Below are positions 38,353 to 59,237 of a DNA stretch of 60,841 bases, piece after piece. The stretch covers positions 1 through 60,841 of the forward strand of contig JAQTMM010000002.1 of assembly GCA_028714335.1 (NCBI GenBank), given 5' to 3'. The notes under the pieces are model-generated. The model was given only the letters and a program-made list of their open reading frames with translations, was not told the DNA's origin and made no database searches. The translations under genes and the position numbers were made by a program. This stretch comes from Dehalococcoidales bacterium (GTDB lineage: Bacteria; Chloroflexota; Dehalococcoidia; Dehalococcoidales; RBG-16-60-22). The number at the start of each line of letters is the position of its first letter. Within the stretch, counting starts at the first letter, position 1.

Positions 38353-38358
38353 TATTTT

Positions 38359-38709
38359 GTCATTCCAGCGCAGGCTGGAATCCACTCTAGGCAATAATGT
38401 TATACAGGTCTTTCCAGTCTGGATTAGCTTCTTCGATTAACCTTATCTTCCAATTACGATGCCAGACTTTTAACCGTTTTTCTCTCTGAATCGCCGATTC
38501 AATATTTTCACATTGTTCGTAAAAAACGAGCATATGTACGCCATACTTTTTGGTGAATCCTTCAACGAAGTCATTTTTATGTTCGTAGACTCTTTTCACA
38601 AGGTCGTTTGTAACACCTATATAAAGAGTCCCATGTCGTTTACTTGCTAATATGTAAACGTAATATGACTTCACTTTCAAAAGTAGATTCTGGCCTTCGC
38701 CAGAATGAC
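38359..38709 (-). mobile_element. GIY-YIG mini-element A: single small GIY-YIG gene bounded by hairpin-forming inverted repeats
   Basis: The left end is GTCATTCCAGCGCAGGCTGGAATC (38359-38382). The right end is GATTCTGGCCTTCGCCAGAATGAC (38686-38709). The two ends are inverted copies of each other, and each folds into an 8-bp hairpin. Differences between the ends are compensatory within the stems. Confidence 0.5.
38387..38680 (-). CDS. GIY-YIG nuclease family protein (small YhbQ/UPF0213-like)
   Basis: 97 aa with the segment YYVYILASKRHGTLYIGVTNDLVKRVYEHK...REKRLKVWHRNWK. Confidence 0.85.
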   Translation of the reverse strand: MKVKSYYVYILASKRHGTLYIGVTNDLVKRVYEHKNDFVEGFTKKYGVHMLVFYEQCENIESAIQREKRLKVWHRNWKIRLIEEANPDWKDLYNIIA

Positions 38710-38717
38710 ACCTGCCC

Positions 38718-40829: not shown

Positions 40830-42086
40830 ATGAGCGCATCCGAACAGAACAACCTGTCCGAAATAATTGAAGAGCAGCTTCCCGGCGATATTTTCCACTT
40901 TATCCAGCACGCCGGCGACACCGCTAACAGCCTCCAGCAGCGCATTTACCTGGTGGGTGGGGTTGTTCGTGACCTGCTCCTTGAACGCATTAATCTTGAT
41001 ATTGATTTAGTCGTTGAGGGGGACGCCATTAAGCTGGCGCAGGCTATCAACAGCGAGGGCCGCGCCCAACTCGTTACCCACCCACGCTTTGGCACCGCTA
41101 AGCTAAAGTGGGGACACCGCAGCGTGGACTTCGCTACCGCCCGCGCCGAAAGCTATGCCCACCCCGGCGCTTTACCCACCATCCACCCCGGCACGATTAA
41201 TGATGACCTTAAGCGGCGCGACTTTGCGATTAACGCCATGGCCGTCGAGCTTAATCCACGCCACTTCGGCGAGCTTATTGACCCCTTTGACGGCTGCGGC
41301 GACCTTAACCGCCAGCACATTAGGGTCTTACATGAAAAAAGCTTTGTTGACGACGCCACGCGTATCTGGCGCGCCTTGCGTTATGAACAACGGCTGGATT
41401 TTACCATCGAACCGGCGACACGCCTACTACTTAAGCGTGATATTGTTTACCTGAAAACCATCAGCGGCGACCGTATCCGCCATGAGCTGGAGTTAGTTTT
41501 ACGCGAAGAACAGCCGGAAAAAGCCCTGTGCCGCGCTTTTGAACTGGACGTTTTAACCACCCTCCACCCCGCTTTAAAAGGCGATAGCTGGCTGATCGAG
41601 GCTTTTAAGGCGGCACGCGTACGCTGCCTCCCCGATTTACCCCACCCCGACTTTTATCTGGCGCTTTTATGCTACCGACTAACAGCTAACCACCTGGAGC
41701 AATTGATTCAGTATCTACGCCCGGCTAAAACCACCACACAGGTATTGCAGGATACTATAGCAATCAAAGAAAAAACCAAAGAGCTCAAATCCCGGCGCCT
41801 GGCGCCCAGCGAGGTTTACGAGATTTTAAACGGTTATCACCCGGTTGCCTATGCTGTTAACGCCATAGCCGCCGGTGCTTCCGCCGCCGACTATATCGAG
41901 CTTTACTTGAATGTTTTAAGAAATGTTAAGCCCGCCCTCACCGGCGAGGCTTTAAAGAAACTGGGTGTTAAACAGGGACCACGAATTAAAGAGGTCTTAT
42001 CTAAACTGCGCCACGCCCGCCTCGATGGTAAAATCACTACCAAAAAACAAGAAGAGGAGTGGGTAGCAAAACGCCACTCCTCATAA
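40830..42086 (+). CDS. tRNA nucleotidyltransferase/poly(A) polymerase family protein (CCA-adding type)
   Basis: 418 aa with the motifs GGVVRDLLL, DIDLVV and RRDFAINAMA. Confidence 0.8.
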   Translation: MSASEQNNLSEIIEEQLPGDIFHFIQHAGDTANSLQQRIYLVGGVVRDLLLERINLDIDLVVEGDAIKLAQAINSEGRAQLVTHPRFGTAKLKWGHRSVDFATARAESYAHPGALPTIHPGTINDDLKRRDFAINAMAVELNPRHFGELIDPFDGCGDLNRQHIRVLHEKSFVDDATRIWRALRYEQRLDFTIEPATRLLLKRDIVYLKTISGDRIRHELELVLREEQPEKALCRAFELDVLTTLHPALKGDSWLIEAFKAARVRCLPDLPHPDFYLALLCYRLTANHLEQLIQYLRPAKTTTQVLQDTIAIKEKTKELKSRRLAPSEVYEILNGYHPVAYAVNAIAAGASAADYIELYLNVLRNVKPALTGEALKKLGVKQGPRIKEVLSKLRHARLDGKITTKKQEEEWVAKRHSS

Positions 42087-42093
42087 TGTCGCC

Positions 42094-42600
42094 CTACTCT
42101 ACCTTTTTGAACGCTTTAGCCCCCGCCCCACAAACCGCGCACTTATCCGGCGCGCTGCCTTTAACGGTATTGCCGCACACCTGGCAAACGTAATAGTCCT
42201 CGTTCTTGAGCTTCTTGCCTTCCTTCACCGCCATATAAGCGTCCTCGAAGTAACCATAGTGGATTTTCTCCACCCGGTTCGCCCAGTCAAAGGACCTTTC
42301 CGCCCGGTCGTTGCTCTCTTTACGCGCCGTCTCGATGAAAAACGGGTACATCTCGGTGAATTCCGTCCTCTCTCCCATGCTTGCCCCCAGCAGATTGTCT
42401 TTGGTCTTCCCTATAGCGTCAATGACGTTCAGGTGGTTGCGCGCATGCACTAATTCCGCCGCCGCCACCGCTCGGAAGAGCTTTGCCGCCTGCGGATAAC
42501 CTTCTTCATCCGCCTTTTCAGCAAAAAATAAATAGCGCCGGTTGGCCTGGCATTCTCCACTGAAAGCTTCAAGAACATACTTTTCCGTCCTATATTCCAT
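42094..42600 (-). CDS. Rubrerythrin
   Basis: 168 aa. It has a ferritin-like diiron domain (E..E..H pattern) and a C-terminal rubredoxin motif CQVCG...CAVCG. Confidence 0.9.
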   Translation of the reverse strand: MEYRTEKYVLEAFSGECQANRRYLFFAEKADEEGYPQAAKLFRAVAAAELVHARNHLNVIDAIGKTKDNLLGASMGERTEFTEMYPFFIETARKESNDRAERSFDWANRVEKIHYGYFEDAYMAVKEGKKLKNEDYYVCQVCGNTVKGSAPDKCAVCGAGAKAFKKVE

Positions 42601-44312: not shown

Positions 44313-45188
44313 CTACTTTTTCCCCCGGCTGTACACATTATGCAAATTCGCCCACTCCTCCAGCGTAAAGGTCTCCGCCCGGCGCTGCGGGTCCAGTCCT
44401 GCTTTAGCCAGCAGCCTCACCGCTGCCTCTTTATCTATGTGTAAACCCTGTGCCAGCGAGTTCGCCACCTGCTTGCGCGCTGCGGTGAATCCCGCCCGCA
44501 CCAGCTTAAAGAACCCTTCAACATCCTTCACCGGCACGGGAGGGTTGTCATACACGTCTATCTTAAGAACGGCGGAGTCCACTTCCGGCGGGGGGAAAAA
44601 GGAGGCGGCGGGAACGTTCGCTACGATTTCCGGTTTGCCGTAGAACTGCACCGCGATACTTAAAACCGAGCGGCCGCCCGCCTTCGCAGCTATCACTTCG
44701 GCGACTTCTTTTTGCACCATGACCACCATCGTTGCGGGCTTTACTGACGCTTCCAGGAAGTGCCGCAGCACCGGCGAGGTTATGTAGTACGGCAGATTGG
44801 CGACGACTTTATAAGAACGGAGTTGCGGGGGGAAGTGCGGGGCGCTGCCCTGCATCAATTTAGCCGGGTTGGTGCCGAGGACGTCCTCGTTGATGACAAC
44901 GATGTTTTCGGCTTCAAGGTTATCCTGCAGTAACGACGCCAGCCGGTTGTCCAGCTCTATAGCGATGACCCACCCCGCCCGTTTGGCGAGTTCCCGGGTC
45001 ATTAACCCCAGCCCCGGCCCCACCTCAATGACGGTGTCCTCCGGCGTTAAAGCGGCGGCATCGAGGATTTGCTCCAGGACAGCGTCGTCAATAAGGAAAT
45101 GCTGCCCCAGTTTCTTGCGCGTCTGGATGTTATAGCGGCGCAGCAGCTTCTTGGTTACCGCCGCCATGGAGGCGTCTTTGTTACTCAT
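44313..45188 (-). CDS. rsmA: 16S rRNA (adenine1518/1519-N6)-dimethyltransferase
   Basis: KKLGQHFL and VIEVGPGLG motifs are present. I truncated the start to the ATG at 45188 (MSNKDAS...). The 58-codon upstream extension in the ORF track runs through the SRP RNA gene. Confidence 0.9.
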   Translation of the reverse strand: MSNKDASMAAVTKKLLRRYNIQTRKKLGQHFLIDDAVLEQILDAAALTPEDTVIEVGPGLGLMTRELAKRAGWVIAIELDNRLASLLQDNLEAENIVVINEDVLGTNPAKLMQGSAPHFPPQLRSYKVVANLPYYITSPVLRHFLEASVKPATMVVMVQKEVAEVIAAKAGGRSVLSIAVQFYGKPEIVANVPAASFFPPPEVDSAVLKIDVYDNPPVPVKDVEGFFKLVRAGFTAARKQVANSLAQGLHIDKEAAVRLLAKAGLDPQRRAETFTLEEWANLHNVYSRGKK

Positions 45189-45198
45189 AATAAAAGGA

Positions 45199-45468
45199 GG
45201 CCGTGCATCCCATCCTCGACTTTGACTAACGGCTTGCCCGGGCCAGCCGGCTCCAGCCAGGCTAACCTGCGGCACCCAGAATATACTATTTACCGCTGCT
45301 TCCTCTCGGACCTCACGGGGTTCATAGCGATCTGCCGCGCAGGACCCAGCCTTCAACGCCACTTAACCAGGGCAGTCCCACCAGACAAAAGCCTCAAACA
45401 GGCTTTCGACCCTGCTATAGCGGATTTCAGGTACAGGGCACCGCTGGCTCCCCATCTAGCACGACCTC
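45199..45468 (-). ncRNA. ffs: Signal recognition particle RNA, large (Bacillus-type, with Alu domain)
   Basis: The minus strand reads GGUCGUGCUAGAUGGGGAGCCAGCGGUGCCCUGUACCUGAAAUCCGCUAUAGCAGGG at the 5' end. Further in, it shows the domain IV motif GGUCCGAGAGGAAGCAGC with a GAGA (GNRA) tetraloop. The 5' GGUCGUGC pairs with the 3' GCACGGCC to close the molecule. The ends are approximate. Confidence 0.8.
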
Positions 45469-45781: not shown

Positions 45782-45810
45782 GAGATTCTTCGTTACGCTC
45801 AGAATGACAG
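45782..45810. repeat. Solo degenerate copy of the GIY-YIG element end repeat
   Basis: GAGATTCTTCGTTACGCTCAGAATGACAG resembles the right end of element A (GATTCTGGCCTTCGCCAGAATGAC) but has a decayed stem. No GIY-YIG gene is attached. Confidence 0.35.
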
Positions 45811-45879
45811 GCTTTTATGAAAGAGGGAGACTAGTGAGGGTATTTTTTTAAATAGGATTTTAGTTGTCAAAAATCCATT

Positions 45880-46392: not shown

Positions 46393-46489
46393 AAATCACC
46401 TCACTCTTATTTTTGTATTTACTAAGATAAAAGCTGGCGCAACTTATGTCTTTTACATCTTCGCTCCCTGGTTACTTAGATATATTATA

Positions 46490-46531
46490 CTACTTCCCTG
46501 TCTCCAGCCGCATAATCAATTGCAGCGGCAG
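46490..46531. repeat. Direct repeat copy 1 (duplicate of the 3' end of the metallophosphoesterase gene)
   Basis: CTACTTCCCTGTCTCCAGCCGCATAATCAATTGCAGCGGCAG matches 46931-46972 at 41 of 42 positions. Confidence 0.85.
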
Positions 46532-46543
46532 CCTAGACAATAG

Positions 46544-46922
46544 GTCATTGCGAGTCCTTCTTAAGAAGGACGTGGCAATCTCCATTTCAGTTTTACATCC
46601 ATTCTTCGGATAAATTACGCCAATTCGGATTTATTGTAGTAATTAATGCTACCTTTGCTTCTCTCGACCAGCTTTTTATTTGCTTTTCTCTTAGAATACA
46701 ACTCTCAATACTTTCGCCTGTTTCATAATAAACAAGTTTATTAATGTTGTATTTGGCTGTAAATCCTTTAACCAATTTATGTTTATGTTCATAGATTCTT
46801 CTAATTAGGTCATTAGTTATAACTGTATAGGTAACCGTATTTGTATCATTAGTCATGATATACACGTAATATTGCCTATTCATAGATTGAGATTGCCACG
46901 TCACTACGTTCCTCGCAATGAC
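46544..46922 (-). mobile_element. GIY-YIG mini-element B: small GIY-YIG gene bounded by approximately 37-bp inverted repeats
   Basis: The left end is GTCATTGCGAG-TCCTTCTTAAGAAGGA-CGTGGCAATCTC (46544-46582). The reverse complement of the right end (46889-46922) is GTCATTGCGAG-GAACGTAGTGA-CGTGGCAATCTC. The termini GTCATT/AATGAC are shared with element A. Confidence 0.55.
46593..46883 (-). CDS. GIY-YIG nuclease family protein (small YhbQ/UPF0213-like), copy 2
   Basis: YYVYIMTNDTNTV...NDLIRRIYEHK...REKQIKSWSREAK. I prefer the ATG at 46883 (MNRQYYVY). The ORF-track GTG at 46904 lies inside the terminal repeat. Confidence 0.85.
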   Translation of the reverse strand: MNRQYYVYIMTNDTNTVTYTVITNDLIRRIYEHKHKLVKGFTAKYNINKLVYYETGESIESCILREKQIKSWSREAKVALITTINPNWRNLSEEWM

Positions 46923-46930
46923 AGACTTGT

Positions 46931-46972
46931 CTACTTCCCTGTCTCCAGCCGCATAATCAACTGCAGCGGCAG
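46931..46972. repeat. Direct repeat copy 2 (the functional 3' end of the metallophosphoesterase gene)
   Basis: CTACTTCCCTGTCTCCAGCCGCATAATCAACTGCAGCGGCAG encodes the last 13 codons plus the stop codon of the CDS at 46931-47662. Confidence 0.85.
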
Positions 46973-58310: not shown

Positions 58311-58385
58311 CTATAGACACATTATAGACAAAAACGTATTAAGGGGAAAGGTGGGGTGGAAACAAATTGCAGATTACCGACTACT

Positions 58386-59237
58386 TTATTCTCTATCGCC
58401 CAGTACCGCGACCAATATCAGCCCCGGCCCAGTATGCGTGCCAATTACCGGCGATGTGTGCGTCTTGATGATTTTTTCTTCCGGATACAGCTTGCCCAAC
58501 CGCTTTACCAGTTCTTTAGCGTCGTCCGGGCAGGCGGCATCTTCCACCGCCAGTCCGTCAATCTTCTTGTAACCCGCCGCAAAGTCGTAAAGCAGGTCGA
58601 CGGCTTTAGCGCGCGAATGCGCCCTACCCGCCGGCTGGACCTTGCCGTCTTTAAGCATAATGATGGGGTTTATTTTCAGTATCGAGCCCATGAACGCCTG
58701 CGCTTTACCGATTCTCCCGCCCCGCTCCAGATATTCCAAAGTATCGAAGGCGGCACGGATTTCTGCGCGCGGGAAATTATCCTGTAAAACCTTCACTACT
58801 TCATCTATTGGGGCGCCCTTTTTAGCGGCCTCCGCCGCCTTAATTACGGCAAACCCCTGCGCCATTACCGCCAGGCCGGAATCAATTACTTTAATGTGGC
58901 AATCGCTTTCAAAAAGGTTAGCGCTCTGTAAAGCCGCGTTATAAAGCCCGCTTAGCTTGGAACTTAACATGACAACCAGGATGTCGTCTGTTTTTTTAGC
59001 AAGATTAGCATAGGTTCGGGCAAAGAGGTCCAGTGATGGCACGGCGGTCGTCGGCACGGCCTTGTTTTGCTCCAGCCGTTTGTAGAATTGTTCGTTGGTA
59101 ATATCGATGCCGTCGCGGAAAACGTCTTCACCAAAGCGCACCAGCACCGGGATGGTGGAAATATCCAGCGCTTTTAATATATCCGGAGGGATATCACTGA
59201 CGCTGTCGGTTACTATCTTGACCGGTTTATTGGGCAT
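58386..59237 (-). CDS. DegV family fatty-acid-binding protein, paralog 1
   Basis: 283 aa with the motifs VKIVTDSVSD, LERGGRIGKAQAFMGSILKINPI and SPVIGTHTGPG. Confidence 0.9.
   Translation of the reverse strand: MPNKPVKIVTDSVSDIPPDILKALDISTIPVLVRFGEDVFRDGIDITNEQFYKRLEQNKAVPTTAVPSLDLFARTYANLAKKTDDILVVMLSSKLSGLYNAALQSANLFESDCHIKVIDSGLAVMAQGFAVIKAAEAAKKGAPIDEVVKVLQDNFPRAEIRAAFDTLEYLERGGRIGKAQAFMGSILKINPIIMLKDGKVQPAGRAHSRAKAVDLLYDFAAGYKKIDGLAVEDAACPDDAKELVKRLGKLYPEEKIIKTHTSPVIGTHTGPGLILVAVLGDRE

Follow-up and report, generated by a model that had tools for sequence, protein, structure and literature searches.

A duplicated metallophosphoesterase gene end around a GIY-YIG/hairpin element: recombination scar or transposase footprint?

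When a gene is followed by a mobile-looking unit and then by a second copy of its own last codons, the question is which copy was there first and what process set the two apart. Such an arrangement is found in the 60,841-nt stretch of Dehalococcoidales DNA that was analysed here as a whole (the window), in which a metallophosphoesterase (MPE) gene is followed by a unit called element B and then by an orphan copy of the MPE 3' end. A sequence-only reading of the window had explained the orphan as a target duplication that preserves the reading frame of the host gene. The answer matters beyond this one locus. Sequence data seldom show how a tiny, very widespread element enters a new site, as an orphan gene end does, and arrival of the element together with part of the gene upstream points to allele recombination (a homing-like spread) rather than to cut-and-paste transposition.

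The repeat pair and the junction it marks

The two 42-nt direct copies are identical at 41 positions, the single mismatch is a synonymous CAG/CAA difference in a glutamine codon, and both ends of the repeat are sharp. Repeat finding and a DNA search of the window recovered only these two matches to the 42-mer; 100 shuffled sequences gave none, so that none is expected by chance. The duplication and its boundaries thus stand as the sequence-only reading had described them, and so do the coordinates of the 399 bp between the copies (46532 to 46930), which hold a pair of inverted repeats, a 96-aa GIY-YIG gene, and linkers of 12 and 8 nt (Table 1). The inverted repeat of element B continues outward on both sides as TAGACAA(N3-4)GTCATTGCGAG, and on the gene side the TAG of this extension is the MPE stop codon itself. 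The proximal linker most likely belongs to the element, as the outer stretch of its end, and its AAGTCTGTCATTGCGAGG junction recurs in an Oscillospiraceae copy (L195). The distal linker would contain a joint made between non-homologous sequences.

Table 1. Features of the window that bear on the origin of the duplicated gene end.
Feature	Coordinates	Strand	Description
MPE gene, intact, 243 aa	46931-47662	minus	ORF; Pfam PF12850/PF00149; full-length orthologs in about 160 Dehalococcoidia loci
Gene-proximal 42-mer	46931-46972	minus	Last 13 codons (LPLQLIMRLETGK) and TAG stop codon of MPE
Proximal linker	46923-46930	minus	ACAAGTCT on the minus strand; part of extended inverted repeat TAGACAA
GIY-YIG element B core	46544-46922	minus	Proximal terminal repeat 46889-46922, gene 46593-46883, distal hairpin repeat 46544-46582
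Distal linker, 12 nt	46532-46543	minus	Between the end of element B and the orphan
Orphan MPE 3' end	46490-46531	minus	41/42 to the gene copy; colinear with L163, L162 and the L082 orphan
Ancestral MPE-SET spacer, 97 nt	46393-46489	minus	Conserved motifs common to L162, L163, L082, L161, L164
SET-domain gene, 170 aa	45880-46392	minus	PF00856; directly downstream of MPE in L162, L163; absent from L081
Solo hairpin module	45782-45809	minus	TGTCATTCTGAGCGTAACGAAGAATCTC on the minus strand; orthologous to the module abutting the L081 MPE stop codon
SRP RNA gene	45201-45464	minus	Rfam RF01854, 183.8 bits; fixed downstream boundary of the hypervariable MPE-ksgA spacer
Empty rubrerythrin/PAP site	42087-42093	.	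7 nt between convergent stop codons
GIY-YIG element A	38358-38710	minus	Same architecture as B; 5 and 7 nt from two convergent stop codons

The order thiL (divergent), MPE, ksgA, ispE is found in about 160 related loci, and the gap between MPE and ksgA ranges from 153 to 3869 bp among them. The comparison with relatives that the sequence-only reading had proposed finds the uninterrupted state in L162 and L163, which lack the element and have a single MPE end, followed by a spacer of 88-100 nt and the SET gene. Relatives with the SET gene were recovered through a protein database and contig look-ups; a peptide-pattern search of contigs gave no confirmed match. The orphan, the spacer and the start of the SET gene in the window align colinearly with both junctions. 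The orphan therefore marks the ancestral MPE-SET junction, and what was added is a 441-bp block made up of the gene end next to MPE and the element with its linkers. To this extent the locus does carry an insertion footprint, as had been claimed. By analogy with five other loci discussed below (L170, L271, L315, L082, L005), the gene-proximal 42-mer probably arrived together with element B.

The nearest relative, L081 (MPE 96% identical, about 92% at the DNA level), was rejected as a simple empty allele. Its match to the window breaks off at 46917 and picks up again at 45814, so that element, orphan and SET gene are all missing, and its MPE stop codon abuts a solo hairpin module orthologous to that of the window, all of which marks it as a further rearranged allele. 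Inserts of other kinds occupy the MPE-SET junction in L161 and L164, and B-type hairpin modules lie right after the MPE stop codon in L005, L094, L123 and L121. A donor allele, in which element B follows the MPE stop codon without an orphan, was not found among the MPE loci or in a search of 5.8 billion proteins. An exact-protein look-up with the window MPE returned no record, and the identity profile of the window against L081 gave no clear signal of an imported tract. The orphan was also considered as a promoter of the SET gene; no sigma-70-like site was called there, despite a TATAAT after its stop codon.

Duplicated gene ends at other loci

Host-gene-end duplications occur at four of the approximately 166 loci of the element family: the window, L170, L271 and L315. 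The end of a rubrerythrin gene is duplicated over 39 nt in L170, and that of a peptidyl-tRNA hydrolase gene over 48 nt in L271 (Saccharibacteria). In L315, the gene for a T9SS-sorted protein has three serial end copies with the stop codons TAA, TGA and TAG; the middle copy measures 133 nt and the last 33 nt, and a hairpin module or a full GIY element follows each copy after 8-11 nt. The lengths of the element-linked duplications are accordingly 33, 39, 42, 48 and 133 nt, four of the five falling between 33 and 48 nt. The sequence-only reading had suggested a search for similar long duplications around other GIY-YIG elements: three further loci have them, and most of the family, including element A of the window, has no flanking host duplication.

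Among 161 MPE loci, each scanned for another occurrence of its MPE end, one was found only in the window, in L082 and in L005, against background alignment scores of 13-18. In L082, 67 nt of the MPE end (79% identity) flank a 2.1-kb insert with membrane-protein and MGH1-like glycoside hydrolase genes, and in L005, 72 nt (93-94% identity) flank an 88-nt dispersed repeat; neither scar has a GIY gene between its copies. At all six loci (window, L005, L082, L170, L271, L315) the displaced 3' end is in register up to the stop codon. The remaining matches of a scan of all ORFs were rejected as spurious ORFs through hairpin arrays, an N gap (L059), tandem or paralogous genes, and a DGR pair (L302).

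Recurrence bears on two further explanations. The first is a chimeric contig, in which the assembler merged two strain alleles, one with MPE next to the element and one with MPE next to SET. The apparent source is an uncultured Dehalococcoidia population, in which strain mixtures are usual, and the repeat is short, as such a chimera would have it. Against this, the copies differ at one base, and the same architecture is present in five independent assemblies; the point at which the 12-nt linker meets the orphan, moreover, appears to share no sequence with the alternative path, so that an assembler could presumably not have made it absent spanning reads. An artefact is therefore very unlikely. 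The second explanation has two steps, a tandem duplication of the gene end by slippage and a later landing of the element between the copies. Short tandem duplications are common mutations, and the family tends to land just after stop codons. Nevertheless, two independent events at the same few bases would have to be assumed for every one of the six loci, the intermediate with both copies side by side was seen in none of about 330 loci, and the allele-like divergence of the copies described below is left unexplained, which makes the two-step origin a far-fetched one.

A third question is whether the element has anything to do with the duplication at all. The spacer between MPE and ksgA may be a recombination hot spot, with the GIY-YIG element as passive cargo of homology-facilitated illegitimate recombination (HFIR) between strains that differ in what the spacer contains. 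The wide variation of the spacer across relatives, the scars around non-GIY cargo in L082 and L005, and the other inserts at the same junction in L161 and L164 are what such an accident would produce. However, the scar recurs at three other host genes (L170, L271, L315) and is enriched beside the element: orphans were found at 4 of 93 ORF ends with a hairpin module at most 30 nt downstream versus 2 of 1994 others (Fisher P = 5e-5), a comparison over some 2,100 ends of ORFs of 150 aa or more in all the DNA retrieved, made with crude ORF calls and on loci chosen for MPE or GIY genes. The geometry is also regular. All four element cases have the GIY gene running in the direction of the duplicated host gene, a repeat that closes with the stop codon, and an element that begins 1-11 nt further on; the linker from distal hairpin to orphan is 12 nt in the window, 8 nt in L170, 4 nt in L271 and 13 nt in L315. 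A random donor end would not give a joint 4-13 nt past the distal hairpin in four of four cases, and so regular a geometry suggests that the incoming DNA is delimited by the end of the element or by a break at that point. An accident independent of the element is accordingly judged improbable. The sequence-only reading had held its interpretation open to failure if the repeat belonged to a larger duplication unrelated to the element, and L082 and L005, with their unrelated cargo, come close to such a case.

The differences between gene copies and orphans carry information about where the orphans spent their history. Across seven copy pairs, 30 of 44 differences (68%) are synonymous and 14 non-synonymous, and 30 of the 44 lie at third codon positions. 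The synonymous fraction departs from random mutation (P = 2e-9) and from the expectation for duplication in place (P = 1.5e-4 to 1.6e-3), the latter estimated at 40-45% synonymous from decay of the orphan together with synonymous drift of the functional copy. No orphan contains a frameshift or an internal stop codon. Comparison with orthologs gives a mixed polarity, with 10 changes derived in the gene copy and 13 in the orphan; 9 of the 13 orphan-specific changes so assigned are at third positions (P = 0.009). Copies 1 and 2 of L315 differ at 11 sites with just two amino-acid changes, both conservative, and the L082 orphan has 14 differences with 5 conservative amino-acid changes (P = 0.003); L005 alone appears compatible with decay in place. 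Any excess divergence of the L170 rubrerythrin gene over its neighbour is weak. The excess of synonymous differences indicates that the orphans once ended functional alleles: the differences arose while they still did so, and gene copy and orphan come from two alleles that were joined later. Since the copies in the window differ at one synonymous site, the test of allele against decay has no power there, and the window is argued by analogy.

One family site provides an order of events. The closest relatives of the element B nuclease (76-83% identical) all lie between the stop codon of a rubrerythrin gene and a convergent poly(A) polymerase (PAP) gene. This site is full in L245-248, L165 and L167 (six intact elements, none with a host duplication). 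In L162, L163 and L094 it holds solo or truncated remnants; in L053, L027 and the window nothing is inserted. An orphan is present at this site only in L170, and its stop codon is followed by sequence resembling the empty site. By this distribution of full, remnant and empty states, the insertion at the rubrerythrin site is old and shared, and the L170 orphan is a later event. Because the closest relatives of element B occupy a site that is vacant in the window, the element B lineage has changed location, which bears out the claim that the unit has moved.

Recombination between alleles as a proposed origin

The reading preferred here, with a probability of about 0.55, is that the orphan is the old MPE end, displaced when the resident gene recombined with a copy that carried the element; the route would be the same as at the other loci. 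The starting state would be MPE, the 97-nt spacer and the SET gene. The 441 bp gained would comprise a replacement end (13 codons and the stop codon), a linker of 7-8 nt, the GIY-YIG/hairpin element of about 380 bp and the 12-nt linker, and their source would be an element-bearing copy of the same gene end, either from the allele of a closely related strain or as a circularised piece. On the gene side, the incoming DNA would pair by homology with the resident MPE. On the far side, its end, 12 nt past the distal hairpin, would be joined without homology 42 nt before the resident stop codon. An equivalent route would be one crossover, inside the 42 bp, between the resident gene and a small circle made up of gene end and element. 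MPE would stay intact because the incoming DNA carries its own gene end, and the repeat would stop exactly at the stop codon because the homology of the two alleles ends there; the other boundary of the repeat would be set by the illegitimate joint, by a break, or by the end of the circle's host flank. The element may promote the event through a break made by its nuclease, or through synthesis or breakage that ends at the distal hairpin.

The principal competitor is a true target-site duplication made in place, in which staggered breaks about 40 nt apart, one always close to the stop codon and the other at a varying position, are followed by gap filling. Such a duplication resembles target-primed insertion, and it may apply to the window itself. 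The repeat lies within 8-12 nt of the element and ends at the insertion point, the four element-linked cases cluster at 33-48 nt (possibly a distance set by an enzyme), the window copies are nearly identical, as for a recent event, and orphans are enriched beside these elements. The other side weighs more heavily. About 160 further insertions of the family have no host duplication, among them element A and the six intact elements at the rubrerythrin site; L315 has a copy of 133 nt; the scars of L082 and L005 enclose no GIY gene; 68% of the differences are synonymous; and at the rubrerythrin site an ancient insertion is paired with a young orphan. Nor is it evident how a single-domain nuclease of 96 aa could place staggered cuts at a measured distance. 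Duplication in place is thus unlikely. A transposase target-site duplication was rejected as a class for the window, given the lack of a single length, the occurrence at 4 of about 166 loci and the synonymous-rich differences, and a recombination scar is the more likely origin than a transposase footprint. Of the original proposal of a target duplication, the footprint of an insertion is kept; the part that falls is its attribution to the element's own insertion chemistry, in view of the rarity, variable length, unrelated cargo and synonymous-rich differences of the scars.

A bolder extension of the allele-recombination reading would treat the units of about 400 bp as distinct homing elements, each a single-domain GIY-YIG nuclease between hairpin-forming terminal repeats, lodged behind a stop codon at a distance of no more than about 10 nt. 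In element-free alleles, cleavage by the nuclease would fall some 33-48 nt upstream of that codon, and repair would copy the replacement end and the element from the occupied allele and halt at the distal hairpin. The upstream boundary of an orphan would then record the position of cleavage (-42 in the window, -39 in L170, -48 in L271, -33 in L315). Taken as a whole, this extension is tentative and rather doubtful. If true, it would make the scars a natural archive of cleavage sites for an uncharacterised family across Chloroflexota, Saccharibacteria, Bacillota, Pseudomonadota and other phyla.

Known systems and the element family

Several known systems share parts of this architecture. The sequence-only reading had held that simple homing by double-strand-break repair would not produce the duplication. 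This is sound for two-sided homing, but one-sided homing with illegitimate double-strand-break repair is known for the td intron and I-TevI of phage T4 (Parker, Belisle and Belfort 1999, as cited in PMC2988022), where, in the account given by PMC2988022, it is a proposed route into sites without full homology. As in that account, a GIY-YIG element would here be gained from an occupied allele, with homology on one flank and the other joined with little or none. Unlike the T4 case, the element B nuclease is a catalytic domain of 96 aa without a DNA-binding domain, the element itself is no intron and is bounded by terminal inverted repeats that form hairpins, and the event in the window leaves a recognisable orphan gene end. 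The seg genes of T4 are comparable in another respect, as intergenic GIY-YIG genes between conserved genes, co-oriented with the upstream gene and polymorphic for presence and absence; Seg proteins, however, have DNA-binding domains, and the seg genes have no terminal inverted repeats.

C-terminal displacement attributed to HFIR is described at Rhs, CDI and T6SS loci, where it leaves orphan 3' regions (PMC5361080 and references cited there). The resemblance is close: behind an intact gene lie one or several 3' ends that it has lost to displacement, derived from once functional alleles, the newest displaced end lies nearest the gene (L315 stacks three), and a conserved upstream anchor is followed by variable downstream cargo. 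The cargo here, in contrast, is a selfish element of about 400 bp and not a set of toxin and immunity modules, the orphans are only 33-133 nt long, and the hosts are housekeeping genes without a variable C-terminus. A parallel for the circular route is the single-crossover integration of a circular plasmid carrying a lacZ end in E. coli, with duplications of 109-950 bp (PMC3240628). As in such Campbell-type integration, a circle with a piece of the target gene would duplicate exactly that piece around its cargo; in the present case the homology would be just 33-133 bp, and the circle would have to form naturally from a gene end and an element. Displaced gene ends from one-sided recombination are, in short, an already known kind of scar. 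What is new is their link with tiny elements, each a single-domain GIY-YIG gene with hairpin ends, that lie behind stop codons in different phyla.

Integrase islands are inserted in the 3' ends of genes, such as the ssrA islands of Dehalococcoides. They share with the window the direct repeats of the gene's 3' end that bound the insert and the intact gene, and they differ in that the repeat length here is not fixed and the copies are allele-like, not an identical att core. An integrase att duplication was rejected for the window: the 399 bp contain no ORF besides the GIY-YIG gene, and the neighbours are MPE, SET, SRP RNA and ksgA. A DGR VR/TR pair was also rejected, because one of the 10 adenines in the orphan differs and the neighbouring genes include neither RT nor Avd; L302, by contrast, carries a true DGR VR/TR pair. 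An IS200/IS605 or REP/RAYT origin was rejected too, as the encoded protein is a GIY-YIG protein and not a Y1 HUH transposase, though hairpin ends are present.

No description of this GIY-YIG/hairpin family was found in the searchable literature, either by name or by signature sequence. The 96-aa protein of element B matches PF01541 (E = 7.9e-12) over nearly its whole length, which leaves no separate DNA-binding domain. It keeps the invariant catalytic residues (Y5, Y8, Y19, R29, E32, H33, E66 and N85), and it alone among 11 sequences has a G21V change in the YIG motif. A PDB sequence search with the nuclease gave no match, NCBIfam has no family for it, and no protein above 83% identity was found among 5.8 billion; the homologs at 76-83% have the same ends. 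The distal hairpin folds as DNA at -9.7 kcal/mol (z = -3.7). Relatives of the family occur in many phyla, including reduced CPR genomes, and tend to sit just after stop codons. The scars offer occupied, empty and scarred alleles, and with them a searchable pattern of gene end, stop codon, element and orphan end. They also pose a risk in annotation, in that orphan ends and hairpin arrays yield spurious ORFs that can be mistaken for pseudogenes or target-site duplications. Many of 78 relatives of element B have long direct repeats around the gene; these were rejected as host duplications and are gene-less hairpin modules of the element family. The family forms gene-less miniature copies and arrays, a behaviour more like that of MITE or REP repeats.

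Ends and nuclease of element B

Element B, the GIY-YIG/hairpin element that lies between the two copies of the metallophosphoesterase (MPE) 3' end, has an inverted repeat that continues past the family-typical GTCATTGCGAG terminus as TAGACAA / TTGTCTA, an extension not shared by its close relatives. When the two linkers between the element and the MPE ends are put together (TAGACAAGTC + TATTGTCTA), they would make a small hairpin; the landing place of the element may have been the loop of a stem-loop directly past the MPE stop codon in a donor allele. Codon 21 of the 96-aa nuclease gene of element B encodes valine where the YIG motif almost always has glycine (YTV versus YTG/YIG); among 11 aligned family members, no other nuclease has valine here. 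The nuclease may be impaired despite the intact ORF. The coordinates of these and other features are collected in the table.

Coordinates of features in the window and in comparison loci from other genomes
Feature	Locus	Position	Strand	Remarks
Large bacterial SRP RNA gene	window	45201-45464	(-)	RF01854, 183.8 bits; SET on one side, ksgA on the other
'ksgA' ORF, 349 aa	window	44313-45362
Element A	window	38358-38710
Empty rubrerythrin/poly(A) polymerase site with last polymerase codons	window	42066-42096
TAGACAA / TTGTCTA	window	46534-46540 and 46927-46933
Codon 21 of the element B nuclease gene	window	46821-46823
ORF with 48-nt repeat	window	58316-58787	(+)
Gene-less miniature of element B	L005	4902-4988
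88-nt palindromic repeat, between MPE ends	L005	4733-4820
Dispersed palindromic repeat, second copy	L005	6205-6326
Truncated element fragment	L170	1392-1470
Copy of promoter-like sequence	L164	~1080-1130
Diversity-generating retroelement signature	L302	~1040-1760

Gene-less hairpin modules and palindromic repeats

In many phyla (L165-L328, e.g., L199, L194, L216, L190, and L227), the GIY-YIG gene lies within arrays of hairpin modules that carry no gene and measure 100-220 nt; these follow the pattern TGTCATT...AATCTC ... GAGATT...AATGACA and flank the gene on both sides as repeats in direct orientation. Repeats around the GIY-YIG gene score at least 30 in 27 of 78 loci, and Bradyrhizobium has its own variant of the module, GTCATCGTCCGCGAAGGCGGACGATCCAGTAA. 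The modules look like a MITE-like non-autonomous population alongside the nuclease gene. Element A, the other GIY-YIG element in the window, takes up precisely the space that separates two convergent genes, with the transketolase stop codon 5 nt before it and the dCMP deaminase stop codon 7 nt away; its two ends form separate hairpins, both beginning TGTCATT.

The L005 locus holds a gene-less miniature of element B, located 8 nt past the MPE stop codon in its second copy. The two terminal repeats of this miniature are ~25 nt apart and fold end to end (-25.4 kcal/mol, z = -6.9). Flanked by the MPE ends of L005, the 88-nt cargo is a palindromic repeat that is dispersed in Dehalococcoidales and has no relation to the TGTCATT modules; it recurs in the same locus between ksgA and ispE, and is also found in L126, L173, L093, and L120.

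The rubrerythrin/poly(A) polymerase site

Element B's closest relatives elsewhere reside at the rubrerythrin/poly(A) polymerase site. In L170, a truncated fragment, consisting of a collapsed proximal hairpin (TGTCATTGCGTGGCAAT) and the first ~13 codons of a GIY gene (DKQYYVYIMSN), is positioned between the rubrerythrin stop codon and the full element, an arrangement suggesting that elements were acquired there more than once. At the empty site in the window, the last polymerase codons (reverse complement GACATTATGAGGAGTGGCG) are similar to the beginning of a hairpin module in degenerate form (GTCATTGCGAGGAGCGCAG in L163); what looks "empty" here may be the remnant of an old deletion, taken into coding sequence.

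The SRP RNA gene and local repeats

The first ~60 codons of the 'ksgA' ORF are spurious because the ORF reads through the overlapping SRP RNA gene. This RNA gene also accounts for the separate matching of the "N-terminal 50 aa" in relatives, at 76-88% identity. In L164, the promoter-like sequence of the SRP RNA (CTTGACAATTAACACC...CTTTACCCTTTAT) occurs as a copy 5' of the SET gene, where an orphan MPE end would be; another local piece of DNA is duplicated at the same junction.

A diversity-generating retroelement signature adjoins a GIY-YIG element in L302. There, a gene's 3' end (VR) recurs ~510 nt downstream (TR), with differences mostly at adenines of the second copy, and an ORF for an Avd-like four-helix bundle lies between the two. 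In the window, one ORF has 48 nt close to its end that are repeated ~0.8 kb (about 809 nt) downstream at ~85% identity, probably reflecting adjacent paralogous genes.
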